Shown piece by piece: positions 5,040-63,900 of a stretch of 64,000 bases of DNA. Location of the stretch: the NCBI GenBank assembly GCA_030390025.1, contig CM059432.1, forward strand, positions 22,446,001 through 22,510,000. Reading direction: 5' to 3'. This DNA comes from Squalus acanthias. Taxonomy: Eukaryota. Numbering within the stretch: the first letter of the stretch is position 1; every line of letters starts with the position of its first letter. Under the pieces are notes generated by a model. The model did no database searches, had not been told where the DNA came from, and saw nothing but the letters and a program-made list of their open reading frames with translations. The translations under genes and the position numbers were made by a program.

Positions 5040-7382
5040 AAGAACATAAAAACATAAGAAGTAAGAGCAGGAGTAGGCCATTCGGCCCCTCGAGCCTGCT
5101 CCGCCATTCAAGAAGATCATGGCTGATCATCGACCTCAACTCCACTTTCCCGCCCTGATCGCCATATCCCTTGATACCGCTAGAGTCCAAAAATCTATCT
5201 ATCTCAGCCTTGAATATACTCAAAGACTCAGCATCACAGCCCTCTGGGGCAGTGAATTCCAAAGATTCACAACCCTCTGAGTGAAGAAATTCCTCCTCAT
5301 CTCAATCTTAAATGGCCTACCCCTTATCCTGAGACTATGCCCCCTAGTTCTAGACACTCCAGCCAGGGGAAACAACCTCTCAGCATCTACCCTGTCAATC
5401 CCCCTCAGAATCTTGTATGTTTCAATAAGATCACCTCTCATTCTTCTAAACTCCAGAGAGTATCGGCCCATTCTACACAATCTCTCATCATAGGACAGCC
5501 CTCTCATCCCAGGAATCAATCTAGTGAACCTTCATTGCACCACCTCCAAGGCAAGTATACCATTCCTTAGATAAGGAGACCAAAACTGTGGACAGTACTC
5601 CAGGTATGGTCTCACCAAGGCCCTGTACAATTGTAGCAAGACTTCCTTACTCTTATACTCCAACCCCCTTGCAATAAAGGCCAACATGCCATTTGCCTTC
5701 CTTATTGCTTGCTGTACCTGCATGCTAGCTTTCTGTGTTTCTTGCACGAGGACACCAAAATCTCTCTGAACACCAACATTTAAAAGTTTCTCACCATTTA
5801 AAAAATATTCTGTTTTTCTATTCTTCCTACCAAAGTGAATAACCTCACATTTCCTTACATTATACTCCATCTGCCACCTTACTGCCCACTCACTTAGTCT
5901 ATCTATATCCCTTTGCAGACTCTTTGTGTTCTCCTCACAGCTTACTGTCCCACCTAGCTTTGTATCATCAGCAAACTTGGATACATTACACTCGGTCCCT
6001 TCATCCAGGTCATTAATATAGATTGTAAATAGCTGAGGCCCCAACACTGATCCTTGCGGCACTCCACTAGTTGCAGCCTGCCAACCTGGAAAAGATCCGT
6101 TTATCCCTACTCTCTGTTTTCTGTCCGTTAACCAATCCTCTATCCATGCTAATATATTACCCCCAACCCCATGAGCCCTAATCTTGTGCAATAATCTTTT
6201 TATGTGGCACCTTATTGAATGCCTTTTGGAAATCCAAATATACTACATCCACTGATTCCCCTTTATCTACCCTGCTAGTTACATCCTCAAAAAACTCTAC
6301 TAAATTTGTCAAACACAATTTCCCTTTCATAAAACCATGTTGACTCTGCCTAATCATGTTATGATTTTCTAAGTGACTTGATACCACTTCCTTAACAATG
6401 GATTCCAGCATTTTCCCGATGACCGATGTTAGGCTAACTGGCCTGTAGTTCCCTGTTTTTTCTCTCCCTCCTTTCTTGAATAGCAGTGTTACATTTGCAA
6501 CCTTCCAATCTGCTGGAACCATTCCAGAATCTAGGGAATTTTGGAAGATCAAACCCAATGCATCCACTATCTCTGCAGCCACCTCTTTTAGAACCCTAGG
6601 ATGTAGGCTGTCAGGTCCAGGGGATTTGTTGGCTTTTATTCCCATTAGTTTCTCTAGTACTTTTTCTTTACTTTTATTAGTTATGTCAAGTTCCTCACCC
6701 TTATTAGACCTTTGGTTCCCCACCATTTTTGGTATGCTTTTTGTGTCTTCTACTGTGAAGACAGATACAAAATATTTGTTTAACATTTCTGCCATTTCCT
6801 TATTCTCCATAATAATTTCTCCTGTCTCAGCCTCTAAGGGACCAATGTTTACTTTTGCTACTCCTTTTCTTTTTACATACTTGTAGAAACTGTTACAATC
6901 TGCTTTTATATTTCTTGCTAGTTTTCTCTCATATTCTATTTTTTCCCTTGTTATCAATTTTTTGGTCAACCATTGCTGGTTTCTGAAACTCTCCCAATCC
7001 TCAGGCTTACTATTATTCTTTGCAACATTATAAGCTTCTTCTTTCAATCTAATGCTATCCTTAACTTTTTTAGTTAGCCAAGGTTGGATCACTTTTCACG
7101 TGGAATTTTTGTTTCTCAATGGAATGCATTTTTGTTGAAAATTATTAAATATTTCTTTAAATGCTAGCCTCTGCATACCTTTTAATCTATTTTCCCAATC
7201 TACCTTAGCCAACTCGCCCCTCATATCTATGTAATTGGCTTTATTTAAGTTTAAGACTCTAGTTTCGGACTTAGGCAAGTCACTCTCAAAATTAATGTAA
7301 AATTCTATCATATTATGATCACTCTGCCCCAGAGTATCCTTTACTATGAGATTGCTAATTAACCCTGTCTCATTACACAATA
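5040..7382 (-). mobile_element. 5'-truncated CR1 LINE (ORF2 remnants and 3' UTR)
   Basis: SDHN, NYRPVSLTS, YLDFQKAF, GVPQGSVLGP and KFADD motifs; CR1 3' UTR with a microsatellite-like tail near 5040-5060. Confidence 0.95.
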
Positions 7383-27999: not shown

Positions 28000-29738
28000 G
28001 GCCCAAACATTTGTGTTGATACGCGAGAGTACGCACTGTGTACTCTCGCGTATTCTGTCTCCAATTGCCGGTTTTCTGCATGCACTGCGCATGCGCTGAA
28101 AACCGGCACTTGGTGAATTCAAAAGGGGGCGGTTCCTAAGTGAATCGCGTGCGCGCTACAGGCTGCGCGCACGCAGTGCACTTAGTGCTTTGAACGCGCA
28201 GGTAAGTATGGAAGATTTAACACATAAAGAAAGGAGGCGTAATACCCTCTTTTAACAAGGTAAGTAGTTAATTAAGTATTATTTTGAATTTTTTTTAACA
28301 GGTATATCTTTTTTAGAGACTTTAAAGACAGGTAAGTTTATTTTTATAACTTTTTAAAAGATTTTAAATTTTTTCAAAAATCTAATTTTTTGTTTAAAAT
28401 GGTTAATTTATTTAACTATACTTATTTTATTAATGTGATGTTTTTTTTTTATTTAATTGAGGTTTAGCTGTTCTTTTGGGGGGGTATAGTATTCATAGCA
28501 GAATTTTATACACTTCTATGAGGTCCCCTCTCAATCTTCTAAACTCCAGTGTGTACATCCCTAAACTACATAGTCTCTCCTCATAGGTCAATCCCGCCAT
28601 TCCTGGTATCAGCCTGGTGAATCGCCGCTGCACCCCCTCCATGGCAAGAACATCTTTCCTCAGATGAGGCGACCAAAACTGTACACAGTACTCGAGGTGT
28701 GGTCTCACCAGTGCCCTGTACAGCTGCAGCAAGGTATCCCTGTTCCTGTATTCCAACCCTTTTGCTATGAAGGCCAGCATACCGTTTGCCTTCTTGATCG
28801 CCTGTTGCACCTGCATGCTCGCCTTCAGTGACTGGTGTACAAGAACACCCAGGTCTCTCTGTACTTCCCCCTCTCCCAATTTATTGCCATTTAAATAATA
28901 ATTTGCCCTCCCGTTCCTGCACCCAAGGTGGATAACTTCGCACTTGTCCACATTATAGTGCATCTGCCATTTATCCGCCCAATCACCCAGTCTGTCCAAA
29001 TCGCTCTGGAGCTTCCTGGTCTCCTCCTCTGAGCCCACCCCCCCTCCTAGTTTAGTGTCGTCTGCAAATTTGGAAATGCTGCATCCGACTCCCTGATCCA
29101 GGTCATTAATGTAAATTGTGAACAGCTGGGGACCCAGGACAGATCCCTGTGGTACCCCACTTGTTACTGCCTGCCATTCAGAAAATGAGCCGTTTATTCC
29201 AACTCTCTGTTTTCTATCTGACAGCCAGTTCTCTATCCACGTCAATACTTTCCCCTTTATCCCATGAGCTTCAATTTTCCCTGCTAATCTTTTATGTGGG
29301 ACCTTATCGAAGGCCTTTTGGAAGTCCAGGTACACCACATCTACTGGCTCTCCCCCATCTATTTTACCAGTTACTCCCTCAAAAAATTCCAATAGATTAG
29401 TCAAGCACGATTTACCCTTTGTAAATCCATGTTGACTCTGTCCTATCCTGTCCCCATTTGCTAAGTGCTCCGCTATTTCATCCTTAATGATGGACTCCTT
29501 CACAGCTGTGCTGTGAAAGCTATGAATGAAAAATGGTGTGCTGCCATTGGCTCTAACTGAGTCACGTGATCCCACAGCTCGCACGAATTAACTACGCCTG
29601 TGGGATATGAAAGCCCTGCACAGCTGCTGTCCAGAACATCAAGTTCGTGCGAGCTGGGACTAAAAAAGCCAGCGCACAGTGAGAGATCGCGGGGAAGCCT
29701 TACCCTCGCACGAAGGCTCCCTCACGAATTTTTGGGCC
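28000..29738. mobile_element. MITE-like TIR element containing a nested CR1 fragment
   Basis: Ends GGCCCAAA / TTTGGGCC; colinear with the copy at 29890-30654 once the CR1 is removed. Confidence 0.75.
28500..29498 (-). mobile_element. Internal CR1 RT fragment with no 3' tail
   Basis: Uninterrupted frame ESIIKD...YLDFQKAFDKVPH...GVPQGSVLGP...KFADD...IEVYKIL. Confidence 0.9.
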
Positions 29739-31289: not shown

Positions 31290-32890
31290 GCTTTTTTTTA
31301 TTGGTTTATGGGATGTGGGTGTCACTGGCAAGGCCAGCATTTATTGCCCATCCCTAATTGCCCTTGAGAAGTTGCTGGTGAGCCGCCTTCTTGAACCGCT
31401 GCAGTTCGTGTAGTGAAGGTACTCCCACAGTGCTGTTAGGGAGGGAGTTCCAGGATTTTGACCCAGCGACGATGAAGGATTGGCGATATACTTCTAAGTC
31501 AGGATGGTGTGTGACTTGGAGGGGAATTTGGAGGTGGTGGTGTTCCCATGCATCTGCTGCCCTTGTCCTTCTAGGTGGAAGAGGTCGCGGGTTTGGGAGG
31601 TGCTGACGAAGAAGCCTTGACGAGTTGCTGCAGTGCATCTTGTAGATGGTACACACTGCAGCCATAGTACTCTGATCCTGGATGATGTCAAGCTTCTTGA
31701 GTGTTGTTGGAGCTGCACTCATCCAGGCAAGTTGAGAGTATTCCATCACACTCCTGACTTGTGCCTTGTAGATGGTGGAAAGGCTTTGGGGAGTCAGGAA
31801 GTGAGACACTCGCCGCAGAAAACCTAGCCTCTGACCTGCTCTTGTAGCCACAGTATGTATGTGGCTGGTCCAGTTACGTTTCTGGTCAATAGTGACCCCC
31901 AGGATGTTGCTGGTGGGGGATTCGGTGATGGTAATGCAGTTGAGTGTCAAGGGGCAATGGTTAGACTCTCGCTTGTTGGAGATAGTCATTGCCTGGCACT
32001 TCTGTGGCGCGAATGTTACCTGCCACTTATCAGCCCAAGCCTGAACGTCATCCAGGTCTTGTTGCATGCTGGCATGGACTGCTTCATTATCTGAGGAGTT
32101 GCGAATGGCACTGAACACTGTGCAGTCATCAGCGAACATCTGCATTTCTGACCTTATGTTGGAGGGAAGGTCATTGATGAAGCAGCTGAAGATGGTTGGA
32201 CCTGGGACATTACCCTGAGGAACACCTGCAGCAATGTCCTGGGACCTTCAAGCACCACAACCATCTTCCTTTGTGCTAGGTATGACTCCAGCCAGTGGAG
32301 AGTTTTCCCCCAAATTCACATTGACTTCAGTTTTAATAGGGCTCTTTGATGCCACACTTGGTCAAATGCTGCCTTGATGTCTAGGGCAGTCACTCTCACC
32401 TCACCTCTGGAATTCAGCTCCTTTGTCCATATTTGGACCAAGGCTGTAATGAGGTCAGGAGCCGAGTGGTCTTGGCGGAACCCAAACTGGGCATCAGTGA
32501 GCAGGTTATTGGTGAGTAATTGTCGCTTGATAGCACTGTCGATGTCTCCTTCTATCACTTTGCTGATGATTGAGAGTAGACTGATGGGGCGGTAATTGGC
32601 CGGATTGGATTTGTCCTGCTTTTTATGGACAGGACATACCTGGGCAGTTTTCCACATTGTTGGATAGATGCCAGTGTTGTAGCTGTACTGGAACAGCTTG
32701 GCTAGAGACGCGGCTTGTTCTGGAGCACAAGTCTTCAGCACGATAGCCGGGATGTTGTCGGGGCCTATAGCCTTTGTTGTATCCAGTGCGCTCAGCCGTT
32801 TCTTGATATCATGTAGAGTGAATCGATTTGGCTGAAGACTGGCTTCTATGATGGTGGGGACCTCAGGAGTAGGCTGATATGGATCATTGG
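31290..32890 (-). mobile_element. CR1/L2-group LINE RT fragment (a family distinct from the canonical CR1 copies)
   Basis: NYRPISLLS, ALDIKAAFD, MFADD and WADKWQVTFAPQKC motifs; disrupted. Confidence 0.85.
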
Positions 32891-33130
32891 TAGAGGCTGT
32901 GGTATAGTGGATGGACAGGCTTGATGAGCTCAATAGTTTTATGCTTTCCAATGTTCTTATTTCTTTTCCCTTTAAATCATATAGGAACAGGTGAACAAAA
33001 CATCGGTAACACCCAGACAAATTGGTCAGTATGGCACAGTGACCAAATACTAAGGGAACACATTAAAAATTTTAAAATTAGGAATAATAAAGGAAGACGG
33101 AGAAATAATAATAAATAATTAAAAAAATAA

Positions 33131-36321: not shown

Positions 36322-37359
36322 ATTAATTTTTAGCTTCTACCTGTTAACTGAGTTTCAATGTTCAGTTTAGTCAGTGGGAATTAAAAGTTGTATCAGTCAG
36401 AGACAGTCTTTAGATGAGAAGAAATGACAAAAAAGCTGTCTTTGTTAGCTCCAGCCTTTTAAAGTTACCTGCCTGAGAACTGGAAAATTAGGGTGGGTAA
36501 CCAAACAGGGGAGTCTGATTTGTGTGCTGCAAGAACAGGGCAATCAAATCAGTGTTGAATGATGAATGTGGATTAGGTTATGTCAAATCATGTGGATTCC
36601 CAAATAGCCAGGGTGGGGGAAAAGAAGCCTTAAAAGCAGGGGTGTTTGGAGAGATATCTCAGAATTTAATGAAGCCTGATTAGCTCAAGAACGTGTGAAT
36701 TCTCCGGTGAACTCATAATGTATCACCATAAGTGGAGATGAGGTAGTGTGAATGAATAAGCCATATTCAGAAAAATACACCATTCTATGAAATAATTCTG
36801 GCCTTATTGTAACATGACAAACTGGGCTTGAAAATCTAAAAACCTAACAATGGAAAAGCTGTAAACAGCATACAGGCTATTGAGATAAGATAACCTTATT
36901 GAAACAGGAGGTTGGAGGTTCCTGAAAGTCTGAAGCTTTGGAAAGAACCCAATGGTACACCCTGTTAAGGTGTCCTAAATTACACTTTGGAAAGAAACAC
37001 AGAAAATTAAGAAACATATGCCTTCGTAAAAATGACATCAAATGAAACACAGGAGACATGATTTTGTGTTGCAACCAGCTGAGGTAACAAAGAAGACAAT
37101 GGTGCACCCAGTTGAGGTGTTTTAATATACACGTCGTAAAAAGACACAAACAGAAGACCTTGGTAAAATGACATCCAATAGATGCATCTGCTGTCAAACC
37201 GTTTTATGGTAAGCTTTGAACACCTAAGGGTAGAGACATGAGTCTGGATTGCTACCAGCTGAACTGACTGTAAGAATAGCAGGGGTCAGCAGAAAAATGA
37301 CTAGAGATAATTAGCTTACATCAACAGAAAACTTCAAAAGAAATGCCACTGAGAAAGGA

Positions 37360-37367
37360 TATAAATA
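37360..37367 (+). promoter_or_regulatory. LTR TATA box
   Basis: TATAAATA conserved in both LTRs (second copy at 44607) and upstream of the donor and polyA signal. Confidence 0.7.
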
Positions 37368-37439
37368 TTGAACTTTCAAATGGGATGATAGTCTCGCTGT
37401 AAATGAGCAAAGCGATTCTCGGCTTCAGAGGCAAGCTCT

Positions 37440-37445
37440 GTAAGT
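37440..37445 (+). promoter_or_regulatory. Putative major splice donor in R
   Basis: CT|GTAAGT about 80 nt after the TATA box, present in both LTRs (second copy at 44687). Confidence 0.65.
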
Positions 37446-38005
37446 CTACAACTCTTTGTACCTTGGGGATCAAAAAGGTACTGTATTTGATTTTGGTGGA
37501 TATCCTGGAATAAGACTAAGATATGTAAAAATGTAACGAAGTTAAGATTTGAGAATAAGGATCTCTGATAATAGAATTGTAAGATTTCTGTTTTTGGAAC
37601 TGTTAATGTTGCGATTGAATCACGAACTGTAAATTACATGTTGGTTCTTTAATAAATCTATATATTTTTAGAATTGTCTCACAAAATACTTCTGTATCAA
37701 ACTCGCGAACTCAATCTCTGTACGCGCTTTGGTGAGGAGTTGCAGAATTCTGGGGGAGTTTTCCGGACCCTCTTAATATCTGGAATGTTACAGTCTAGCT
37801 AAACTTATTAAAAGTGCTATCTGGAGGGCGGTAACATCTTCAGGTTGTTCCTTTCCTTTAGGGAGAGATAGTCTGGACCTTCAGACCCAATTAAGCATCT
37901 TTAGGATTCGGCTACCTCAAACTTTAGTTGAAAGTGAACGTCTGAGGAATACACCTGATCCGGGGTAGCCCTAAAGGGGCTAGGACTAGTAATTATCCCT
38001 TCAGT

Positions 38006-38023
38006 TGGTGCCCAATGTGTGTG
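38006..38023 (+). promoter_or_regulatory. Primer binding site, tRNA-Lys1,2 type
   Basis: TGGTGCCCAATGTGTGTG begins 2 nt after the LTR. Against TGGCGCCCAACGTGGGGC, the first 14 nt differ only by two CpG-to-TpG changes. Confidence 0.85.
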
Positions 38024-38134
38024 TTAACAAGTTGATACCGAACCTATACTTATATTTATATCTATATCCATCTTGTAGATTGTTAAGTATAGAAGGAGTG
38101 TTTTACTGACAGACCCAGATTTAAGTCTCTAGAG

Positions 38135-39808
38135 ATGACAAGTCCCTGATCAGGCCTTGTAGAACTTAACTCAGAACTCCCTCAATATGCCATTGAGGTC
38201 TAGAAATTTCTTATAAAGTTCATATTAAACCCTAACCGAGGTTAGGTCCTGACGAAGTGGCAAACCCTGTCAGAATTGGCCAAGTCTTTTTATTCGGAAA
38301 TTCAAACGATTGCTTTATTAGGGGAAATAATCCTATCCCTGTACCTCCACAAAACCAAGTGATATTTTTTTAAATAGAAGGCTTTGATGCCGACGGACCA
38401 TTAGAACTCATGGCATGATTGATGTTGATCCCCAGAACCAGGGGATACAAAATATCCAGTGGGATAATCAAACAAATACTCCAAATCCACTAAATTCCTT
38501 AATGATAAGGTGCACACCCGCACAATTGGGAGGCCTAATGAACAATGCCCAACAAGGTGGTGGCAACCATGGCCGAATAATAGGACCCGGAGCAGCCTAT
38601 GCTCCCGAGGCCATGGATTCCGGTTAAGGTGGCAAGCTCATGATAAAATAAATGACCAGAATCTTCGAGAAAACTATAGACAGCTTAGAATCCATTATAG
38701 TCAATGCCGACAGGCACTAGCTCAATCTTATCTAAATGCTGGAGGCGCAATGATTACTGGTCCAGTAAGCCAACCCCAGCAACCAAACCTGAGCTCTATC
38801 TACACAATGTGTGGTAGACCGGGCAACATCAGCCAGGAAAAAACCTGCTGGATTCTAACTAACCTTGATAAATTGGAAACCTGTTGCCAAGATTGGAATG
38901 CCCAACACCTGAGGCAACTACTACAAATGATACTAAGTTCAGACTTAATTCCCCCATTAAACCAGTGTAACAACTGGGTTCAAATATATGCCTATGTTCT
39001 CATGGCAACTCAGGGAGGGCATGTAATGGGTTCCATCAAGGAAATACTCACTAATACAGCCACAACTAAAGGGCTGGTAGCTGCCTACAGATTAGGCAAA
39101 GTACTTACACAGGATAACTGGGACATTGTCCATGGTTGCCTGGCCAATCAATACCAAAATACAGCCCTCAAACTTGCCTGTGAGGGTGCTCTAAAAGATT
39201 ATCGAGATAACCAACAAAGATGGGATAATGTCAATCGCATTATCCAATTAAACCATGACCTCTTAGGTCTACCCTAAACTAAACCTATAATGAAATCAGA
39301 AACTAGGGATAAAAAAACCGGAGAAGGTACCTTTGGTACTCAGAAACAAGGACTGTATAGACCCAAGTCTCAAGTCCACCCCGCCCAGACACAAACTCGT
39401 GGCTCGGGACTCCCAAGATGGTATTCCAGAAGGATTACACCCCCAACTCGCCCACAATACGAGAAAGATTTCTCCCTGGAAAGATGGGATAGACGAGGGG
39501 CTAGACCTCGAAAGGAAAGCGAAGGACAGTGGACTCCCTATGGGGACAGCTTTTACACTGGCCAAAACTATCAGAGAGCCATGGGAGGATACCGGGAAAA
39601 CCGAAATGGGGATCAAAAAGATTCCCAGCAGAACCAACGTCCACCCCAACAGGAGGATCGTCAAGATAATAAACGGTCTGACAAAACCCCTCAGGGATTT
39701 GGAAAACATGATACCCCCAAGAGGGAGGAACAAAAATCAATTAAAATAATTAAAGACAAAGCAGCAAATGAAACTCAGGATCCTGAGGATGAACAATCCC
39801 AGGATTGA
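38135..39808 (+). pseudogene. gag: Foamy-type Gag (disrupted; start uncertain)
   Basis: GLVAAYRLGKVLTQDNWDIVHG and HDLLGL align by eye with foamy capsid GVATAYTLGMMLSGQNYQLVSG and YEILGL; Arg/Gly-rich C-terminus; no CCHC knuckle; in-frame stop at 39275-39277; disrupted 5' part. Confidence 0.8.
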
Positions 39809-42800
39809 AGGCCTGGCACCCAGCCAGGGCCTCTTGAATTCCCCTATGCCCTGGCAACCTTGCCCACAAACACACAAGTGAAGGCCCTGTTTGATACAGG
39901 AGCTGATTACACTGTAATAGATCCTGCAATTATAAAAACTAAGTGGAAAGATTTGGGGAGCCCAATTTGTAAAAGACCATTAGGGGGATTCACACAAGAC
40001 AAAACCAAAATAATTAATTTTTACAAAATACCTATTACTATATATGGAATCACGGTGACCCTAGATGTAGGACTGATACCACAATTGGCCTGTTCCCTCA
40101 TTATAGGACAACCAGACATGAAACATTACCTTAAAATCTCAACCAGACCTGTAGAAGCATCCACAGACCAGGATGACAGGGAAAAACATGTTCGGACACA
40201 GCTTGATCGAACTTGCCTAGAGGGGGGAGGCAAAGACCTCCTCGAGCAACTCATTAATAGATACTACCCTTATCTACAACGCCATCCAAATCAATGTGGA
40301 AAGATAGACATCAAATCCCACCCACTTGATGCTGGCTGGAATAAACCTAAAAAACAGTGGTCTATTCAAGATCACAAAGGAAAAATCGATCTCCTAACAA
40401 CGCTCAAAGAACTAACAGAACAAGGTATCTTAATCAAAATGGCATCTAGAACTAATTCACCATTGTTTGGTGTTGCTAAACCAGATGGGAGGTGGAGATT
40501 AGTGGTCGATTCTACAGCCTTAAATAGGGTAACGGCCCCACATACTGCACAACAACAAAATTCCACAGCCTTTCTCTCTGGAATCACGAGGGAAAAATAT
40601 AAATCTTGTATTGATCTAGCAAACGGCTTCTGGACACATCCAATCGAAAAAGCTGATTGGCCAAAAACAGCGATGACTGGACCCGATGGTTATCAGTACT
40701 GCTGGACCAGATTGCCCCAGGGATTTCAAAACAGCCCCGTTCTCTTTTCAGCCCACATCATTGACCTTTTAAAAGACCTACCTAACGTCAATTCTTATGT
40801 GGACGATATATATCTGTCACATGACAATCTCCAAGAGCACTTGAAAGCCATTGATAGTGTTTTATCCAGACTTACAGCTGCTGGGCACTTAATCAACATA
40901 AAAAAGAGTCAACTAGTTAGGGAAGAGGTAGATTTTCTGGGCCTGCGACTAACTGGAAACGGTAGAGGATTAACTCAATCCTATAAAGAAAATTTAGCCA
41001 CCATTCAATATGCTAAAGCTCTGAAAAATCTGCAAGCAAGTTTAGGACTCCTGAATTTTGCTCGATCCTTTACGCCAACCTTTGCCGAGCTCTCAGCCCC
41101 CCTGTATGCTAGAGTGGGCGAAGCAGCAAAAGGACCATTCATATTTTCACCAGATGATTACTCAAAATTGCAACAATTATGCCGAGAGGTACAAAAAGCC
41201 ATAGACCTGGAACAGAGGGACTTACACGTTCCCCTCAATATTCATCTCAGGTCATCACCTAAAGTGACAGTTGCAGTTTTCTATAATGAAAAGAGTATAG
41301 TGCCCTTTCAGTTCCATTCTTATAACTTTTCCAATGTTGAAAGGAGGTACATGAAAAAGAAAGGGACATGACTATGGTAGTCCAATGCCTCATCAAGGCA
41401 CGAACCCTTCAAGGGAAATACCCCATTACCATCTATACTGAGATTCCCAATTTAAGATCAGTATTGAGGATGACCTCTGATGAAAAAAGAGCCACCCAGA
41501 TCCGATATGATAAATGGGCATCGTTCTTGAATGATCCTACACTCATTTTTAAATTCCTCTCCCCAGAAATGGACTTAGAGCATCTCCCCATCATGGACGA
41601 TGATGATACGAAGGAGGGAATCAGACAAATACCTATGAGACCGCTTACAGAGTACCATCCAGTCATTTACTGTGATGGATCTTCAATGACAATTAACAAA
41701 GGGACATCCCAACAATCCTCAGCTGGGACGGGGATAGTAGTAGGGACTTTTCGAGATTCCTATTCTTTTTATCCAGAAGTATTACTGTTCATACCCCTTG
41801 ACCATAAGACAGCACAATATGCTAAAGCCGCAGCATTACGACATGCTTTAGAAAAGGCAGACCCTATTAAACCCACATTAATCTGTATGGATAGTGACTA
41901 CTGTAAAAGAGGATATAACCAAGATCTAGTTTTCTGGGAACAAACAAATGTTACCAATCATAAGGGTAAACCCATAAAACATAAGTCATTGTGGGAAGAC
42001 ATTCTCCATTCGAGAATGGAGAAACAGAATTGTCAGGTGATTCATGTAAACGGGCATACCACTGGGACAGTACATTCAAAAGGAAACAGTCATGCAGACG
42101 AACAAGCAAAACGTTCGGTCTGCATGACACCTCACTAGGGCAGAATGGGCAGCTAATCAGGATGAGGAACTGATTCAGCTATTAGACCCAACAAAAGAGA
42201 ATCCACCAGGATATCCACCAAAGTACTTTTACTCAGAAACCCCTACGGGTATTGTGCCAGTTAAGTTGCCCAAGGGAAACCGAGAAGTACCCCCGAGACA
42301 CAAACGAGAACAGCTTGTAAAAGTAGCTCACGAGGGCATAGGTCAAGCACATTGTGGTTCCAGAACAACATTCTGCAAATTGACCCCCTTATATTGGTGG
42401 CCAGGCATGCTTAAGGCCTGTAAAACATACGTGGCAAATTGTGAGCCATGCTATTTAACCAATAAGTCATCACTAATTAAGCCACCACCATTGGCTCCTG
42501 TGAAAGCTGATGAGCCAATGGGGAAATTCTTTATTGACTTTATTGGACCACTTCCCCCATCTTTGGGATACACAGATGTTCTTGTTTGTGTAGATGGATG
42601 CACTTGCTTCTGCTAGCTGGTCCCCACAAAAACTGTTTTGGAAAACGCACTCGCCAATGCTATTACTGACATAATTACTGGAGCTGGTGCACCCAAAATC
42701 TTAGACTCCGATCAAGGCAGAGCCTTTGTCTCCAAGGTCTTCAAAGACTACTGCGAACAAAGGGGGATTGGGTTAGAGCACAGCACGCCACATCATCTGC

Positions 42801-43606
42801 AATCAGCGGGGCTGGTGGAATGTAAAAACCAGGAAGTAAAAAAGCTATTGGTCAAACTGTTGAGAATCAGGGGAAGCAAGTGGACCACCGTCATTCCGGA
42901 GGTGCAGCTATCACTTAATAATGTGCCCGCATCTGCATCAGGGACAGTGTCCCCTAAAACTCCATGTTATCTAATGAATGGGGTTGAGATGCATACACCG
43001 CTTACCCATAGTTCTTTTATTGCCTCTACACACTCTGAGTCCTTGACCCGGCAGCGACAGTTAGATTTTTAAAAAAAAGTAACAGAGGAGATTCATCAAA
43101 TTGATCAGAGGATAAGGGAGGCAAATAGGCAGAAAAAATTGACAAACAAAGCATGGCAACCCCTAGCAGGAGAATGGGTACAGGAAAAGAAGTTCGAGCA
43201 AAAACCTGGTTTAAGACTGAAGTGGAAAAAACCTGTTCAAATACATTCTGTTATTAACGAAAGAACAGTTAAATGACATATTAATCAGCCGAATAGCAAG
43301 CATATTCGTAAAACTGTCTCCATAGAGAATCTCAAAAGATGTCCTGCGAGATACCGAAATGGAGGAATAATACAAGGTGCAGTCGTACACTGTCTTTCAA
43401 GACCCAGCTTGGAGCACGACACAGGAAATGAATGCAATCGAATTACTGACGATGGTCAGTCAGACGGTGTCGCCGACTCCTCCACACGATGCTTGGCAAC
43501 ACCTCAGGAATTGGATTCACGAAAAGCCACAACCGAAACAAGGCAAGATCAACGCGTTACTTCAACGAAGGAGGAAAACACTGTGGATGAAGAAGGAATC
43601 AACTGA
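39789..43606 (+). pseudogene. pol: Foamy-type Pol: protease-RT-RNase H-integrase (disrupted)
   Basis: PR LFDTGAD; RT KPDGRWRLVVD, DLANGFWTHPI, LPQGFQNSP and YVDDIYLSHD (40796); RNase H YCDGS...GNSHAD; IN N-terminal extension [31 protein letters not shown], and C-terminal TVSIENLK. Frameshifts near 41360 and 42120; stops at 42614, 43070 and 43274. Confidence 0.95.
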
Positions 43607-43685
43607 GCGCCTGGCAAGGCCTTTACGAAAACAAGAATCTGTCCACACGCTGGATCGAAGGAACAGCGTGTCAAGCTTCAGCTAG
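43359..43685 (+). pseudogene. env: Putative env leader-peptide remnant
   Basis: ATG in the +1 frame inside the pol 'NG' codons just after TVSIENLK, the same position as the env start in prototype foamy virus; stop at codon 4; no SU or TM follows. Confidence 0.5.
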
Positions 43686-43983
43686 TTCCAAATGACGTCT
43701 CCTTGACTCATATGAATAACTCACATCTACGGAACGTACATCTGCTGATTGTCCATTCTAAGTACATGTTGTTTTGCGAATTGCATGACAATGTACATAT
43801 CGCCCGTTTAAATTGTGTTCAATTTAAAATAAGGCAAAACATTGTCCTAGGATGACTTAAAAGGAATTTTTCATGTAGCACATGATTAGGCTTTTATGAA
43901 TTTCTTGACATTAATGTGCTATTGTAACCTTATTAGTAACATTGACCAAACTCTGTCTAGATGCTCGAGTTCATTTTTTGGTC

Positions 43984-43992
43984 AGAGGGGGG
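43984..43992 (+). promoter_or_regulatory. Polypurine tract
   Basis: AGAGGGGGG directly abuts the TG of the 3' LTR and is preceded by a T-run. Confidence 0.85.
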
Positions 43993-45234
43993 TGTGAAGG
44001 AATAAGCCATATTCAGAAAAATACACCATTCTATGAAATAATTCTGGCCTTATTGTAACATGACAAACTAGGCTTGAAAATCTAAAAACCTAACAATGGA
44101 AAAGCTGTAAACAGCATACAGGCTATTGAGATAAGATAACCTTATTGAAACAGGAGGTTGGAGGTTCTAAAAGTCTGAAGCTTTGGAAAGAACCCAATGG
44201 TACACCCTGTTAAGGTGTCCTAAATTACACTTTGGAAAGAAACACAGAAAATTAAGAAACATATGCCTTCGTAAAAATGACATCAAATGAAACACAGGAG
44301 ACATGATTCTGTGTTGCAACCAGCTGAGGTAACTAAGAAGACAATGGTGCACTCAGTTGAGGTGTTTTAATATACACATCGTAAAAAGACACAAATAGAA
44401 GACCTTGATAAGAATGACATCAAATAGATGCATCTGCTGTCACACCGTTTTTATGATAAGCTTCGAACACCTAAAGGTAGAGACATGAGTCTGCATTGCT
44501 ACCAGCTGAACTGACTGTAAGAATAGCAGGGGTCAGCAGAAAAATGATTAGAGATAATTAGCTTACATCAGCAGAAAACTTCAAAGGAAATACCACTGAG
44601 AAAGGATATAAATATTGAACTTTCAAATGGGATGATAGTCTTGCTGTAAAGGAGCAAAACGATTCTTGGCTTCAGAGGCAAGCTCTGTAAGTCTACAACT
44701 CTTTGTACCTTGGGGATCAAAAAGGTACTGTATTTGATTTTGGTGGATATCTTGGAATAAGACTAAGAAATGTAAAAATGTAACGAAGTTAAGATTTGAG
44801 AATAAGGATCTCTGATAATAGAATTTAAAAATTTCTGTTTTTGGAACTGTTAATGTTGCGATTGAATCACCAACTGTAAATTACATGTTGGTTCTTTAAT
44901 AAATCTATATATTTTTAGAATTGTCTCACATAATACTTCTGTATCAAACTCGCAAACTCAATCTCTGTACGCTCTTTGGTGAGGAGTTGCAGAATTCTGG
45001 GGGAGTTTTCCGGACCCTCTTAATATCCGGAACGTTACAGTCTAGCTAAACTTATTAAAAGTGCTATCTGGAGGACGGTAACATCTTCAGGTTGTTCCTT
45101 TCCTTTAGGGAGTGATAGTCTGGACCTTTAGACCCAATTAAGCATCTTTAGGATTTGGCTACCTCAAACTTTAGTTGAAAGTGAACGTCTGGGGAGTATG
45201 CCTAAAGGGGCTAGGACTAGTAATTATCCCTTCA
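43993..45234 (+). repeat. 3' LTR (1242 bp)
   Basis: Direct repeat of the 5' LTR with about 45 substitutions (manual count), a few 1-nt indels and a ~17-bp deletion in U5; AATAAA at 44898-44903. Confidence 0.97.
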
Positions 45235-45321
45235 GTAGAAGATCAGCCATGATCTTATTGAATGGTGGAGCAGGCTCAAAGGGCCAAATGGCCTACTCCT
45301 GCTCCTATTTCTTATGTTCTT
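45235..45321 (+). mobile_element. CR1 3' UTR fragment that is the proviral integration target (left part about 36731-36746)
   Basis: The joined flanks read GTGGAGATGAG-GTAG-AAGATCAGCCATGATC...TTCTTATGTTCT, matching the CR1 3' UTRs near 11880 and 50200. Confidence 0.8.
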
Positions 45322-45574
45322 AAGTGTGCTGTTAAATGTATGTGCAATTATTATCAAATATAATTACCACTGTATGCTTAATATTCAGTGTATAGCAACA
45401 ATAAATGCTTTGGAACTCTATTATTTTGACGAGTAAATTATAAACTTATAATAAGAACAGCCATCATCTAACGTAAGGCAGAACAGGTGGATAAAGACTA
45501 TAGATTATAGGATGAAGGAAAGACTGAGGAAGGGAAGAAACTCTCCGGGCTGGAGGAGATACTGGAGCAGCTTA

Positions 45575-46190
45575 GAATCATAGAATCATAGAAAGTTACA
45601 GCACGGAAGGAGGCCATTTCGGCCCATTGTGTCCGCACCGGCCAACAAAGAGCTATCCAGCCTAATCCCCCTTCCCAGCTCTTGGTCCGTAGCTCTGCAG
45701 GTTAGAGCATCCCAAGTGCACATCCAAGTACTTTTTAAATGTGTTTAGGGTTCCTGCCTCTACCACCCTTTCAGGCAGTGAGTTCCATACTCCCACAACC
45801 CTCTGGGTGAAGAAATTTCCTCTCAAATCCCCTCTAAACCTTCCACCAATTACTTTAAATCTGTGCCCCCTGGTTTTTGACCTCTCTGCTAAGAGAAATA
45901 GGTCCTTTCTATCCAATTTATCTATGCCCCTCATAATTTGATACACCTCAATAAGGTCTCCCCTCAGCCTCCTCTGTTCAAAGGAAAACAGACCCAGCCT
46001 ATCCAGTCTTTCCTCATAGCTAAGATTCTCTACTCCCAGCAACATCCTTGTAAATCTCCTCTGTACTCTCTCTAGTGCAATCACATCTTTCCTGTAATGT
46101 GGTGACCAGAACTGCATGCAGTACTCTCGCTGAGGCCTAACTAGTGTTTTATACAGTTAGAGCATAACCCCCCTGCTCTCGTATTCTATG
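45575..46190 (-). mobile_element. CR1 3' fragment
   Basis: QFWSPHYRKD...FFTQRVVGVWNSLP; (CATAGAAT)n tail. Confidence 0.9.
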
Positions 46191-48369
46191 CTTGTTTAGA
46201 TGTATTGTGGTGCACCTTTAAATAAGAATAAAATAATAATTTCTGCAGTCAATTGGAAAGCAAAAAGACTCTTCATTACTCAATTGGATGATTCTTGACT
46301 ATCAGTCAAACAGCCTTATCCCATCTCCAATATTTTTATAACTAATACACAGAAGTGTTCAAAGAAAATGAAAAATCACTATGTTTTTTAACGACCCAAT
46401 GATTTTTCTCCTGGGTTACTCGTAGCAGTGCCCTGGAGATTAATCTTCAATTGCTGTAGCCTCCAGGCACATCTGGAGGGTTGGCACCCTAGATGAGGTA
46501 CTGGAGGGCTGTTGTCTGCCATAAGTCATGAACAGGACCATCGTTTTACAGAGACTGACAAAGTCATGTTCCATTTTTGCTACATGGCATTCCTGGAATT
46601 TTATCTATGTTTTGAAATGACATCTCGCGATACCTTCTGTTTATAATCAGGCTGAATGTTTTATACTGGCTGAATGATTTTTTCATCATGAGGGGTTACC
46701 AGATTTTATGGGGGGGTGGGGTGGGGGAAAGGGTTATTGGAGATCGTATTTTGGATTTCAACCCATTTTTGTGTGAAAACTGTGGCCTTCTTCATGAAAC
46801 TCTACCTCTAGAAAAGGGAGGGAGGAAGCGAGGGGAAGGAAATTGGAAAAATAATTGGTTGGGGATTTTAAACTTCTATTTAATTGAACAGAACTATTTA
46901 CTCCAGTGGAGATGACGAATGTCCACTTGCTGTTGCCAAGGATGTAGTTTGAAGCTAGAAATCACAAGCAGATTATATGGTATATGTTCCTGTATCTCAG
47001 ACTTTATGAACCTTTGCAAGCAATACAACCTTCTTAAATAGATCTCCGTTCCTTCATCGTCGCTGGGTCAAAATCCTGGAACTCCCTACCTAACATCCCG
47101 TGAATGAATTAAAAAAATTGAATTTTAATGATAGTCAAGGAAGAACAGATCAGTTGCAGGAAAATTGGTGTTTGTCACCGACCTGTTGTGAAGTGAGGGG
47201 TGGGGGGGGGGGGGGGGGCAGGGGAAGGAGTGGGGGTGCATGTGCGATGAACCATCATGGGCTTATTTAGTTCTGAGCCAGTGGACACGCCTTCGGCCAA
47301 AGCAAAGGAAGATGAATGGACAATGTTATTTGACGGGATGGCACTGAACCCATTTCTCAGTTGCCTGGACAAACCATGTGCATCTTAATGAGCTTTCAAT
47401 TCATCACTTATTCCATGCTTCACACTGCAGACTCGCCACAGTTCTGTTGAGGTTGGGAGTGATTTATAGGCACAATTCAGGCTAAATCAAAGGATGCAGC
47501 TAGCAATGAAAAGATTAGAGAACACATTGTGCAAAATTTAAAACCCAGACAGATGGGAGACACTCAGTTCTGTTTCGACACTTTCCCCACCCCCAGTTCC
47601 CGAGACACATATACATACGTGCACATTCACACACATATGCACGCACTCACACACACACACAAACTCACACGCACCAATGCCATATGCATGGGCTTTAAAG
47701 GGGCAATAATTGGAATGCTGTCTGTGAATTTATTTTCCAATCATAATGCTGCAGAAATAAATGGCTGGTTCTGGAAAAGTGACTGAAATTAACGAACTGT
47801 GCATTAAGCTTTCTAAAGGTATGATTTGTTTTGAAAGTTGAAAAACTTTATTAGATTGGTTACCTCCACAGAGGCTTCAGTCGTGAACAACCCAGCGTAT
47901 GTGAAGCGACTAGAAATGAGGGAGCTTTGCAAAGCTGCAGTACCATGGGCTGCCATTACATCAGCCCTCCCTTTCTAATATGGTAACTTTTGATAATTGC
48001 AGAGTCCCAAGCACAGGCCAGGGACTAGACTTGGCTGTCGGACTAGCACTTGTCTAAAAAGGATTTAGTTTTCTCTTTGTTTCCTTCACTTTTCTACCAA
48101 CCTCTCCGTAAGGGGCTGACATTAAGGAGGATGTTTGCGCGTGGACCCTCTGGCACCTCACCCAGTTGCCCATTCTTAGTCATGCGCCAACTTAGTAGTG
48201 AGTGTCAGCAGGCTATTTCATACTAGGGAGTATCATATACAGTTGTATCGGCTGTAGCAGATATTCTTTACATTGCCCAAGTAGCCATTCTTCATTTATA
48301 AACCACGAGCGTGAGTGTTGGCAGGCTATCTTACCACAAGAGTCTCCTCCTGCCATCCAGGCACACATA

Positions 48370-50367
48370 GGCCTGGATTTTAGCCTGGAGGCAAGTTCTG
48401 TGCGGAAGGGGGTGGGGGGGAGTCGGGGGGGGGGGGGAGGCTGTTGTGAAGTCAGGAATCCTGGAAGAACGGGTTTCCTGAATGTCCTGCAGAATTTAAC
48501 TGCAGGGCTGCTTCAGATTTTTTTCTGTGGGGTTCCCGCCCACAGGCAGCCTGATTTCGGGTGGGAAGCCTGCTTCACAAGGCCGAAGCCTTCAACAGCA
48601 GGTAGGTGTATTGGGGGAGTGAGAGGGATTGTGAGGGGGTGGGGGGGGTCTGGATTGCGGGGGAGGTCTGATGGTGGTCCGGGGTTCCGATCATGGTGGG
48701 GGGATCCGATGGGGGTCTGGGGGCTCCTGATTGTGGGTAGGTAGTTCATTGGTGGTCCGGGGGGTCCCGATCGTGTGGGGGTCCGATGGTGGTCCAGAGA
48801 TCCCGATTGTGGGGGGGGTCCGATGGGGGTCTGGAGGCTCCTGATTGCGGGTAGGGAGTTCATTGGTGGTCCGGGGGGTCCCGATCGTGTGGGGGTCCGA
48901 TGGTGGTTCAGAGATCCCGATTGTGGGGGGGGGGGGGGTCCAATGGTGGTCCAGGGGGGTCCTTTGGTAGTCAGGGGAGGCCTGATGGTGGCCAAGGGGC
49001 CCAATGGTGGTTGGGGAGGTCTGATGGTGGTTGGGAGGGGGGGGGGGGTCCAATGGTGGGAGGAGCAGACAGATCGTGGTGGGCACTTTACTGGGTAGCT
49101 TGTTGGGCTGAGAGGAAGCACTTCTGTTCCTCCTGGCCCATAAGCAGTGCAGTAAAGGGACTTACCTCATGGATTCAACTCTTTTCGCCCCCTTTAAGCT
49201 GCTGAGTTTCCCGAGACATGGGAACCCCTGCCGATATGAGCTAAATATAGAATGACTGTTAAAATGAAGATGGGCCGTTTCATTATTATAGTTAAATGAC
49301 CAACTGCTTCCCTCGAGCAGGTTGGTTGCCTGCCCCTTATCCCGCCTCCATTAAAACCAGAAGTGGCCAGGTTCGGCTCCTGTTCTCCAAGTTTGCAGAC
49401 GACACAAAGCTGGGTGGGTGTGTGTGTTGTGAGGAGGATGCAGAGAAACTCCAGTATGATTTGGACAGGTTGGGTGATTGGGCAGATGCATGTGGTAAAT
49501 GCGAGGTTATCCACTTTGCTGGCAAAAACAGGAAGACAGATTATTATCTGAACGGCAATAGATTGGGAAAAGGGGAAGTGCAACGAGACCTGGGTGTCCT
49601 TGTGCACCAGTCGCTGAAGGTAAGCATGCAGGTACAGCAGGCGATTAAGAAGGCAAATGGTATGTTGGCCTTCATAGCGAGAGGATTCGAGTACAGGAGC
49701 AAGGATGTCTTGCTGCAGTTGTACAGGGCCTTGGTGAGACCACACCTTGAGTATTGTGTGCAGTTTTGGTCGCCTTATCTGAGGAAGGATGTTCTTGCCA
49801 TGGAGGGAGTGCAGCGAAGATTCACCAGACTGATACCTGGGATGGCAGGAATGACGTATCAAGAGAGATTGGGTTGATTGAGCTTGTAGTCACTCGAGTT
49901 TAGAAGAATGAGAGGGGATCTCATAACAGGACTAGACAGACTAGATGCAGGAAGGATGTTCCCGATGGCGGGGGAGTCCAGAACCAGAGGTCACAGTCTA
50001 AGGATAAGGGGTAAGCCATTTAGGACTGAGATGAGGAGGAATTTCTTCACCCAGAGAGTGGTGAACCTGTGGAATTCTCTACCACGGAAGGCAATTGAGG
50101 CCAATTCATTAAATATATTCAAGAATGAGTTAGATATATTTCTTAAGGCTAAAGGGATCAAGGGATATGGGGAGAAAGCAGGGACAGGGTACTGAATTTG
50201 GATGATCAGCCATGATCTCATTAAATGGCGGAGCAGGCTCGAGGGGCCGAATGATCTACTCCTGCTCCTATCTTCTATGTTTCTATGTTTCTATGTTCCA
50301 GATTTTTTGCATTTTAACCTCTGACACGACCCCAACCCACCCGTTTTTGGTACTTAAGATTCAGCCC
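48370..50367. mobile_element. MITE-like element (family of 14295-15048) with an internal 114-bp tandem duplication and a nested CR1
   Basis: Same termini as the 14295 copy; G-rich CCGAT repeats with units at 48706 and 48820. Confidence 0.75.
49385..50298 (+). mobile_element. 5'-truncated CR1 nested in a MITE
   Basis: SKFADDTKLGG...FFTQRVVNLWNSLP; (TTCTATGT)n tail. Confidence 0.9.
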
Positions 50368-61369: not shown

Positions 61370-63900
61370 ATTGTGTCTGTGCCGGCCGAAAAGAGCTATC
61401 CAGCCTAATACCACTTTCCAGCTCTTGGTCCATAGTCTTGGTGGTTACGTCACTTCAAGTGCATATCCAAGTACTTTTTAAATGTGATGAGCCTTTCTGC
61501 CTCTAACACCCTTTCAGTCAGTGAGTTACAGATCCCTAACCTCTCTGGGTGAAAAATGTTCTCCTCAACTCCCCTCTAATCCATCTACCAATTACTTTAA
61601 ATCTATGCCCCCTGATTATTGACCTCTCTGCTAGGGGAAATAGGTCCTTCCTATCCACTCTATCTAGGCCCCTCATAATTTTATACACCTCAATCACGTC
61701 TCCCCTCAGCCTCCTCTGTTCCAAAGAAAACAACCCCAGCCTATCCAATCTTTCCTCACTGCTAAAATTCTCCAATCCTGGCAACATCCTCGTAAATCTC
61801 CTCTATATCCTCTCTAGTGCAATCACATCTTTCCTATACTGTGGTGACCAGAACTATACACAGTACACTAGCTGTGGCCTAACTAGTGTTTTATACAGTT
61901 CAAGCATAACCTCCCTGCTCTTATATGCTATGCCTCGGCTAATAAAGGAAAGTATCCCGTATGCCTTCTTAACCACCTTATCTACCTGGCCTGCTACCTT
62001 CAGGGATCTGTGGACATGCACTCCAAGGTCCCTCTGTTCCTCTACACTTCTCAGTATCCTACCATTTATTGTTTATTCCCTTGCCTTGTTAACTCTTCCC
62101 AAATGCATTACCTCACACTTCTCTGGATTGAATTCCATTTGCAACTTTTTTACCCATCTGACCAGTCCATTGACATCTTCCTGCAGTCTACAGCTATCTT
62201 CCTCACTATCAATCACGCGGCCAATTTATTATCATCTGCAAACTTCTTAATCATTCCCCCTACATTGAAGTCTAAATCATTGACGTATACCACAAAAACA
62301 AGGGACCTTGCACTGAGCCCTGTGGAACCCCACTGGAAATAGCCTTCCAGTCACAAAAACACCCTTCGAACCATTACCCTTTGCTTCCTGCCACTGAGCC
62401 AATTTTGGATCCAACTTGCCACTTTTCCTTGGATTCCATGGGCTTTTACTTTTCCAACCAGTCTGCCATGTGGGACCTTGTCAAAAGCCTTGCTAAAATC
62501 CATGACGACTACATCGAACGCATTACCCTCATCAACCTTCCTTGTTATCTCCTCAAAAAATTCAGTCAAATTAGTCAGATACGACCTTCCCTTAACAAAT
62601 CCATACTGACTATCCTTGATTATTCTGTGCCTTTCTAAATGACGATCAATACTGTTCCTCAGAATTTTTTCCAACAATTTGCCCACCACTGAGATTAGGC
62701 TGACTGGACTCGGTCTATCCCTTTCTCCCTTTTTAAACAATGGTATAACATTAGCAGTCCTCCAGTTCTCCAGCACCATACCTGTAGCCAGAGAGGATTG
62801 AAAAATGATGGTCAGAGCCTTCGCTATTTCCTCTCTTGCTTCTCTAACAGTCTGCGATACATTTCATCCGGGCCTGGGGATTTATCTGCTTTCAAAGATG
62901 CTAAACCCCTTAATACTTCCTCTCTCACTATGCTTATCTCATCTAATATTTCACACTCCTCCTCCTTAACTACAATGTCTGCATCGTCTCTCTCTTTTGT
63001 GAAGACAGACGCAAAGTATTCATTAAGAACCATACCCACTTCTTCCGCCTCCACACACAAGCTTCCTTCTTGGTCTCTAATAGGCCCTATTCTTTCTTTA
63101 GCTAACCTCTTGCTCTTTAAGTATTTATAAAACATCTTTGGGTTTTCCTTGATGTTACTTGCCAATATTTTTTCATGCCCTCTCTTTGCTTTCCTAATTT
63201 CCTTTTTAATTTCACCCCTGCACTTGCTATACTCCTCTAGGCATTCTGTAGTATTTAGCTCTCAGTATCTGACATTAGCTTCCCTTTTTTGCATTATTCT
63301 ACCCTGTATGCCCCTTGACATCCAGGGGACTCTAGATATGGGAGTTCCACTCTTTTTCTTTGTGGGAACGTATTTTCTCTGAACCCTCACTATCTTCTCC
63401 TTGAATGCCTCCACTGTTCTGACTCTGATTTACCTTCAAGTAGCTGTTTCCAGTCCACTTTTGCTGAATCACATCTCAACTTAGTAAAATTGGCTTTTCC
63501 CCAATTGAGAACTTTTACTCCTGATCTAGCTTTGTCCTTTTCCATAACTATGCTAAATCGAACTGAATTATGATCACTACCACCAAAAGGCTGATACCTT
63601 CCACCTGCCCAGCTTCATTCCCTAAAACTAAGTTCAGAACTGCCCCCTCTCTTGTTGGGCTTACTACATACTGGCTAAAAAAGTTCACCTGAATGCATTT
63701 TACAAATTCAGCACCCTCTATACCTTTTACACTGATTCTATCCCAGTTAATGTTAGGATAGTTGAAATCCCCTACTATTACTGCCCTATTGCTTTTGCAT
63801 TTCTCAGCAATTTGCCAACATATTTACTCTTCTATCTCCCTCTGACTATTTGGGGGTTGATAGTACACTCCCAGCTGTGTAACTGCCCCTTTTTTGTTCT
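61370..63900 (-). mobile_element. CR1 LINE (ORF2 remnants), with its 3' tail split by two DNA transposons
   Basis: KSPGPD, MDFSKAFDKVPH and GLFSLEQRRLRGD motifs; the tail continues at 59605-59636 and about 58697-58709. Confidence 0.92.

Follow-up and report, generated by a model that had tools for sequence, protein, structure and literature searches.

Which retroviral lineage left the provirus with two long terminal repeats (LTRs) at positions 36747-45234 of the 64,000-nucleotide stretch of contig CM059432.1 analysed here (the window), and how did this element make its Pol protein and multiply in the genome? An earlier note, written from the sequence alone, had read it as a foamy-like endogenous retrovirus (ERV) of a shark-like host, perhaps belonging to an undescribed and deep-branching lineage. 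Among retroviruses, the foamy lineage looks the oldest and serves as a textbook example of virus-host co-divergence, and Gag-independent expression of Pol is a hallmark of Spumaretrovirinae. Taken as a whole, the locus is very probably explained as a dead, env-deleted provirus of a Spumaretrovirinae-like ERV family in a probable elasmobranch genome. The env deletion, the large size of the family and the arrangement of gag, TGA and pol in one reading frame are points that the earlier note did not contain.

The provirus carries gag and pol between its LTRs, and all parts previously reported, i.e. paired LTRs (1257 and 1242 nt), a 4-bp target site duplication (TSD; GTAG), a primer binding site (PBS), a polypurine tract (PPT) and the gag and pol frames, were confirmed (Table 1). 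The LTRs align with 1203 matches, 40 mismatches and 5 indels (96.8%), and a direct repeat search of the window independently recovered the same pair. Two other clean-ended copies of the family have 4-bp TSDs of their own, TTAC and TTGT. The PBS starts 2 nt past the 5' LTR and reads TGGTGCCCAATGTGTGTG in the window copy; the same place reads TGGCGCCCAACGTG in other family copies, from which the window copy differs by two CpG transitions. The family PBS is complementary to 14 consecutive 3' nucleotides, including CCA, of a host tRNA-Lys(CTT) gene. This gene, recognized by ARAGORN, is one of 239 matches in the host genome to a T-arm plus acceptor pattern ending in ...CCCCACGTTGGGCG, a pattern with 0 matches in the control. 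Therefore, the primer site is of the Lys1,2 type, as had been proposed. A candidate TATA box at 37360 and an AATAAA at 37651 in the 5' LTR are motif matches only. A further purine run at 40219-40230 may be a central polypurine tract: its first 9 nt repeat the 3' PPT core AGAGGGGGG exactly, for which our own arithmetic gives a chance expectation of about 0.02 matches in 6 kb, and 3/5 copies whose translation reaches that point retain the glycine run encoded there. Central polypurine tracts are a trait of foamy viruses and lentiviruses; this candidate is located in the linker between protease and reverse transcriptase (RT), not in integrase.

Proteins were analysed without repair, using the intact 520-codon protease-RT (PR-RT) frame of the window, the natural open frames of other copies, and X at stops. 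In a sequence search of the PDB, the top five chains were foamy virus PR-RT (E 1.9e-92 to 2.7e-89), followed by Ty3 (6.7e-32) and by RT of the murine leukaemia virus type (about 5e-26). Among the longer proteins of a 5.8-billion set, the top six were named foamy virus Pols with 36-42% identity (E 9e-92 to 3e-83), the next match reaching E 1.7e-29. HMMER searches over 1.84 billion representatives returned nothing above 42% identity; feline foamy virus Pol was best (40%), with a 1687-aa protein designated P0031, a Callorhinchus milii protein (34%) and a Scyliorhinus torazame model (42% over 250 aa) as runners-up and teleost and Pleurodeles proteins as further relatives. Integrase is 42% identical to that of prototype foamy virus (PFV) over about 300 aa, and the alignment starts at Pol residue 758, inside the N-terminal extension, whose presence the earlier note had claimed. 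The foamy-like motifs named there, DLANGFWTHPI, YVDDIYLSHD, IGPLPPS and TVSIENLK, are likewise present and align with PFV Pol. With Gag_FV_central and Spuma_A9PTase scoring over their cut-offs and foamy viruses as best matches, the assignment as a foamy-like ERV was upheld.

To place the element, we computed a maximum-likelihood tree from 405 columns of the RT-connection region in 47 rows, under LG+C20+F+G4 and the posterior mean site frequency approximation. The rows comprised the window element, 8 of 17 exogenous foamy virus genomes, 16 foamy-like proteins, 6 class III-like sequences of frogs and turtles, 4 gamma-like genomes with 4 relatives, 2 delta-like genomes with 1 relative, one other protein and a 4-row outgroup, while 25 rows of a 72-row quick tree, mostly Gypsy-type and long-branch, had been dropped for feasibility; true ERV-L sequences lie outside this sample. 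The element falls within the clade of foamy viruses and foamy-like ERVs (FLERVs) with support of 100/99, a grouping that received 99 in the Shimodaira-Hasegawa-like approximate likelihood ratio test of the quick tree; the gamma-like genomes group elsewhere with their relatives (96/93). Within the foamy clade, the C. milii sequence is basal and a teleost-type clade (100/99) branches next. The window element, P0031 and S. torazame make up the window group (94/80). Together with Pleurodeles and the exogenous foamy viruses it forms a larger group (97/85), in which the 8 exogenous foamy viruses are its sister (97/92). Since it groups with tetrapod viruses inside the foamy clade, the chimaera and teleost-type sequences being outside, the lineage is foamy but not deep-branching as the earlier note had supposed. 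A topology with all bony-vertebrate rows together and the shark lineage outside was rejected (approximately unbiased test, p-AU 0.010); this grouping was named after the tree had been seen, and several rows of the teleost-type clade are without a named host. Placement beside the mammalian rather than the salamander foamy viruses is not secure: holding the exogenous foamy viruses and Pleurodeles together was not rejected (p-AU 0.122). Coelacanth, reptile and bird endogenous foamy viruses lie outside the tree sample.

Gag supports the same affiliation. Another copy encodes a natural full-length Gag (525 aa, 93% identical to the Gag of the window copy), in which Q, G, N, P and R abound and no CCHC motif occurs, in line with the earlier statement that Gag lacks a Cys-His box. 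This Gag matches PF20672 (Gag_FV_central) at 50 bits, PFV Gag (PDB 5m1h) with E 3.7e-4 in a sequence search, and a PFV-like Gag with E 1e-8 (19% over 162 aa). A shared-word search for Gag homologues brought 0/4163 candidates to E 0.01, and comparison with the N-terminal part of P0031 gave no significant match. An AlphaFold model, computed from an alignment of 12 foamy Gags and two other family copies, has a mean predicted local distance difference test score (pLDDT) of 46 overall and of about 70-79 for residues 184-349. Its top PDB matches were the PFV capsid 8ozk (E 5e-8, template-modelling score 0.79, root-mean-square deviation 2.7), then 5m1h. Thus, both the profile search and the structure search that had been recommended point to foamy virus Gag; because foamy Gags were in the alignment behind the model, the two do not count as independent lines of evidence.

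How Pol was made is less certain. In the window copy gag and pol share one reading frame with a single TGA between them, and a same-frame, non-overlapping arrangement was found in 27/27 copies read at the junction. Among the 26 other copies, the junction codon is TGA in 20, TGG in 4 and TGC in 2; the env-bearing copy described below is rearranged here and gives no junction codon. The first Met of the pol frame lies at about codon 103, past the DTGA active site of the protease, with no earlier ATG. By contrast, 17/17 exogenous foamy virus genomes have a pol that overlaps gag and is read in the +1 frame, and 16/17 have an ATG 31-55 nt before the gag end. Two relatives also join Gag and Pol: P0031, from a 10,956-nt contig, is a single 1687-aa Gag-Pol open reading frame (ORF), and the Pleurodeles waltl model P0205 (987 aa) connects Gag_FV_central to RT, although this may be an annotation artefact. 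As each is one predicted Gag-Pol protein, these relatives suggest that foamy-like viruses other than those of mammals may often carry gag and pol in one frame. XtERV-S of Xenopus has gag-TGA-pol in one frame as well, according to the accessible part of PMC8278194. The gag-pol layout is not discussed in the searchable text, figures excluded, of PMC5512871 and its supplements, PMC5210030, PMC10699275 and bioRxiv 2020.12.18.423569. As a side observation, copies L025, L027, L030 and L034 form a subfamily with a shared internal deletion within gag (element positions ~1953-2920), and TGG replaces the junction TGA in three of these four members.

Gamma- and epsilonretroviruses produce Gag-Pol by read-through of the gag stop; modern foamy viruses make Pol from a separate spliced mRNA with its own AUG. 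Because of the same-frame gag-TGA-pol layout, the lack of an early pol ATG, the layout of XtERV-S and the fusions in P0031 and Pleurodeles, we infer, with less certainty than the foamy identity, that Pol of this family would have arisen as a Gag-Pol fusion via read-through of the single in-frame UGA. Several observations weigh against this view. The hairpin following the UGA is not significant when compared to shuffles (z -1.65; 12/200 shuffles fold equally well), nor do the 121 nt after the UGA fold better than shuffles (z -1.29), and the family copies are too alike for covariation to inform on RNA structure at the junction. Moreover, the hairpin begins 1 nt past the stop, while known read-through stimulators sit further away. 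A sense codon (TGG or TGC) occupies the junction in 6/26 copies. In yeast Tca2, finally, bypass of the gag UGA with a 3' pseudoknot for pol expression is unclear, as far as the accessible text of PMC2194720 goes.

Alternatively, Pol could have been made independently of Gag, from a spliced or internally initiated mRNA or from a non-AUG start, the TGA being a plain gag stop. This is possible, if somewhat doubtful. It is, to our knowledge, the rule in all characterised foamy viruses, and it would agree with the separate pol frame of the 17/17 exogenous genomes, with the insignificant hairpin and with the Tca2 precedent; however, it has to accommodate a pol frame without ATG ahead of the protease active site, the non-overlapping same-frame arrangement in all copies read, TGG and TGC variants that encode a direct fusion, the 1687-aa ORF of P0031 and, with the reservation made above, P0205. 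Among contigs of two presumed-RNA runs and two other runs, no GT..AG joint from leader to pol was among those listed for 36400-45600. The joints 39723>42018 and 40304>41576 were considered as splicing and rejected: they are also present in non-RNA runs and therefore represent deletion variants.

Read-through or not, env of the window copy is gone. Only a 5' remnant overlapping the pol end is left, and neither the remnant nor the downstream ORFs gave a Pfam match. A genome search with Foamy_virus_ENV (PF03408) returned 11 matches over the cut-off at no fewer than 6 places, with matches in 0/14 control genomes. One env-bearing locus, the only one joined to its own gag-pol (L078+L082 on contig C20), is 87-92% identical to the window element through gag and pol and holds 3166 nt between the points that align to window positions 43635 and 43665. 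The deletion starts about 30 nt beyond the pol stop and leaves the env 5' end overlapping pol. In the C20 copy, env has a length of about 3.2 kb, and some 560 nt separate its end from the LTR; this copy also carries an 840-nt insertion in integrase. Five other env loci (L076, L077 and L079-L081) are 85-93% identical to the C20 env locus, and all are degraded. From the integrase end to the PPT, 40/40 scored copies are colinear with the window copy at 92-95%, and full copies have an internal region of about 6.0 kb; therefore, the family as scored has no env. All scored env-less copies share the same deletion. No tas/bet was detected in the roughly 560 nt between env end and LTR of the one env-bearing copy, all copies being degraded. 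Accessory ORFs in U3 were considered and rejected, as no recurrent ORF was present in the LTR across 11 copies.

The env-less form has become numerous. In the genome searched (3.71 Gb, 3882 contigs), the LTR probe, whose use across the genome the earlier note had recommended, found 6083 candidates, the internal probe 741 and the pol-end probe 591; these figures are first-look lower-bound candidates and not counts, which speaks against reading a family size directly from them. They point to proviruses in the hundreds and to numerous solo LTRs. Mean pairwise dN/dS (ratio of nonsynonymous to synonymous substitution rates; 55 pairs) was 0.46 for gag, 0.45 for PR-RT, 0.37 for RNase H and 0.62 for integrase, as compared to 0.71-0.92 for out-of-frame controls over the same columns. 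As the in-frame values lie under those of the controls, part of the divergence arose with Gag and Pol under selection. The LTRs of the window copy differ by a Kimura two-parameter distance (K2P) of 0.034 (26 transitions and 15 transversions over 1240 aligned positions), and the four copies with clean LTR pairs span 0.026-0.041; the pairs of the other 7/11 aligned copies are undated owing to insertions, truncation or misalignment. At the rate assumed for cartilaginous fish in the accessible part of PMC10699275 (0.5e-9) and that implied in PMC4422223 (about 2.2e-10), these distances would correspond to roughly 26-93 million years. Near-identical family words also occur in sequencing runs of eight studies, which bear at least seven organism labels; the family is therefore common to several related species or labels.

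These data are consistent with the following course. A foamy-like exogenous virus that had gag, pol and env would have entered the germ line, and one env-deleted derivative would then have multiplied within the genome through retrotransposition that relied on Gag and Pol. Judged by LTR divergence, this spread would have taken place some tens of millions of years ago and would have left hundreds of proviruses and thousands of LTRs, the window copy decaying afterwards. Spread of the env-less copies by germ-cell reinfection, complemented in trans by env-bearing helpers, instead of intracellular retrotransposition is unlikely in our estimation. Env-bearing relatives do coexist in the genome at similar divergence, and the N-terminal region of Gag, which binds Env in PFV, is retained across the family, with a weak fold hint of the Gag model to PFV Gag-NtD (4jmr, E 0.25); yet the 741 and 591 env-less candidates stand against 13 env-bearing ones (the env search being a stricter first look), one deletion is common to all scored env-less copies, and env loss generally accompanies genomic expansion, as Magiorkinis et al. 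reportedly described in 2012.

A class III ERV (of the ERV-L, ERV-S or XtERV-S type) that resembles foamy viruses in pol only is most improbable, for although the gag-TGA-pol layout of XtERV-S, the missing env, which ERV-L lacks too, and the failure to find accessory ORFs downstream of env or in the LTR would suit it, the class III-like sequences of frog and turtle group apart (91/89), outside the foamy clade with its 100/99 support, the central domain of Gag is of the foamy type, relatives carry the foamy Env domain PF03408, and no dUTPase domain, which ERV-L carries, was matched by Pfam among the window ORFs. Identity as a gamma- or epsilonretrovirus (class I) was rejected as well: Pol groups elsewhere and there is no Cys-His box, so that only the gag-stop-pol layout is in common.

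The window copy itself is extensively damaged. Its gag begins with GTG at 38257, where 10/10 other copies have ATG, carries an in-frame stop near 38370 as well as deletions of 1 bp at 38397, 1 bp at 38606 and 24 bp at 38784, and reads TAA at 39275-39277, where other copies have CAA; the stop-to-stop pieces are 38468-39277 and 39278-39808. Those of pol are 39809-41371, 41341-42138, 42128-42616, 42617-43072 and 43277-43606; pol has deletions of 1 bp at 41351 and 32 bp at 42131 and stops at 42614-42616 and at 43073-43276. Further lesions are deletions of 10 bp at 38110 and 1 bp at 43983 and a 1-bp insertion at 43867. Indels were called private to the window copy against at least 7/10 other full-length copies aligned from the same genome, and contigs of four public sequencing runs show the family state at its lesion sites. 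The pol frame ends at 43603 in 7/11 copies, with the stop codon at 43604-43606. Gag and pol are both open in 0/11 aligned copies.

Table 1. Coordinates of the provirus, its parts and neighbouring ORFs in the window.
Feature	Position	Strand	Basis or remark
Surrounding LINE (long interspersed nuclear element) RT and Myb/SANT-like ORFs	290-1075, 2891-3772, 5532-7095, 28493-29587, 31354-33062, 62351-62863	-	
TSD GTAG, 5' copy	36743-36746	.	identical 4 nt at 45235-45238
5' LTR, 1257 nt, TG...CA	36747-38003	+	LTR alignment
PBS, tRNA-Lys(CUU) type	38006-38023	+	decayed at two CpG sites here
gag	38257-39808	+	other copies have ~525 codons
Foamy-type Gag central (capsid) domain	38795-39271	+	Pfam PF20672, 55 bits (cut-off 30)
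TGA between gag and pol	39806-39808	+	TGA kept in most other copies
pol	39809-43606	+	protease, RT, RNase H, integrase; ~1275 codons
Protease, DTGA active site	39872-40366	+	Spuma_A9PTase PF03539, 28.5 bits (cut-off 21)
Candidate internal polypurine tract	40219-40230	+	first 9 nt = exact AGAGGGGGG copy of 3' PPT
Reverse transcriptase, YVDD	40475-40951	+	RVT_1
RNase H	41662-42117	+	RNase_H
Integrase: N-terminal extension, HHCC, core, SH3-like end	42155-43364	+	Integrase_H2C2, rve
env 5'-end remnant, overlaps pol end	43371-43635	+	comparison with env-bearing relative
env-deletion junction	43636-43664	+	alignment to env-bearing relative
3' PPT AGAGGGGGG	43984-43992	+	directly adjoins 3' LTR
3' LTR, 1242 nt, TG...CA	43993-45234	+	LTR alignment
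TSD GTAG, 3' copy	45235-45238	.	matches 5' copy

Flanks on both sides (36717-36746 and 45235-45322) indicate that the provirus was inserted within a host repeat of very high copy number, whose summed contig depth reaches millions in two sequencing runs; loose contig ends before 45235 look like the 5' flank. As the insertion lies inside such a repeat, paralogous repeat copies serve as empty-site control for the insertion boundaries. The surroundings are rich in repeats, with at least five LINE-type reverse transcriptase ORFs and one Harbinger-type Myb/SANT-like ORF, and no host exon was recognised among window ORFs of at least 130 aa. In a GC-rich stretch at 48001-50000 (GC 0.54, GC skew +0.28), both strands carry overlapping ORFs (156-231 aa), none of which has a Pfam match. 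For a LINE-tail ORF beside the provirus, 1/120 listed relatives bears an organism name, that of the bamboo shark Chiloscyllium punctatum, and the nearest named ERV relative in the subclade of the window element is from a catshark. Both agree with the shark-like host envisaged earlier, and the host genome is probably that of a cartilaginous fish, an elasmobranch.

In comparison with exogenous mammalian foamy viruses, the shark family is alike in the sequences of PR-RT (36-42% identical) and integrase (42%), in the YVDD motif of RT, the A9-type protease and the integrase N-terminal extension, in a Gag with central capsid domain and no Cys-His box, in the tRNA-Lys1,2 primer, 4-bp duplication and long LTRs and, in relatives of the window copy, in an Env of family PF03408. 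It is unlike them in having pol in the frame of gag, after TGA and without ATG, in a protease motif DTGA and a Pol longer by about 130 residues, in the missing env of the window copy and perhaps in tas/bet-like ORFs, none of which were detected in the degraded copies. CmiFLERV of C. milii likewise has a cartilaginous-fish host and a pol in the foamy clade (XP_007889123, 34% identical). It sits at the base of that clade, apart from the shark lineage, and only its pol is detectable according to the accessible part of PMC5512871, whereas the shark family has recognisable gag, pol, LTRs and, in relatives, env. ERV-Spuma.0-Sca, a consensus from the small-spotted catshark, also has an elasmobranch host, is Spuma-like by pol and is represented by hundreds of fragments; the accessible part of PMC10699275 annotates it with 9220 nt, LTRs of 866 nt, a gag of 753 codons and a pol of 982 codons, groups it with FLERVs of ray-finned fish and reports neither a Gag nor an Env domain. 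Compared by these annotations only, the shark family differs in its LTRs (1257 nt), gag (~525 codons) and pol (~1275 codons), in its foamy Gag and Env domains and in its position near tetrapod foamy viruses. XtERV-S has gag and pol in one frame with TGA between them and no Cys-His box; it differs by a class I env, as given in the accessible part of PMC8278194, and the class III-like sequences of Xenopus are not part of the foamy clade.

Novelty is therefore only partial, because cartilaginous-fish foamy-like ERVs are in print, as the accessible parts of PMC5512871 and PMC10699275 attest. Of the suggestion that the lineage is undescribed, it holds that the family is a new and unusually complete member of this group. 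No other description of a foamy-type ERV from elasmobranchs or Chondrichthyes was found in the open-access literature searched. The features that deserve attention are the in-frame gag-TGA-pol layout and the position near tetrapod foamy viruses.

Previous records from cartilaginous fish are thin, consisting of a chimaera pol only and of one catshark consensus without recognisable Gag or Env. With the family described here, all foamy-type parts are available from a shark-type host, i.e. LTRs, primer site, Gag capsid, Pol and the Env of its relatives, and the family clearly shows an expansion in the genome after env was lost. Where it sits in the tree speaks against simple co-divergence with the vertebrate classes, and its gag-TGA-pol layout makes the timing of the loss of Gag-Pol fusion in foamy viruses testable. 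Tentatively, and with some doubt on our side, the element may represent an elasmobranch foamy lineage that has Gag, Pol and Env of foamy type and is nearer to tetrapod foamy viruses than the teleost and chimaera lineages are, yet made its Pol by read-through fusion. If so, Gag-independent expression of Pol would be a late innovation on the line leading to the mammalian foamy viruses, and the shark lineage would stem from an ancient transfer between vertebrate classes and not from co-divergence.

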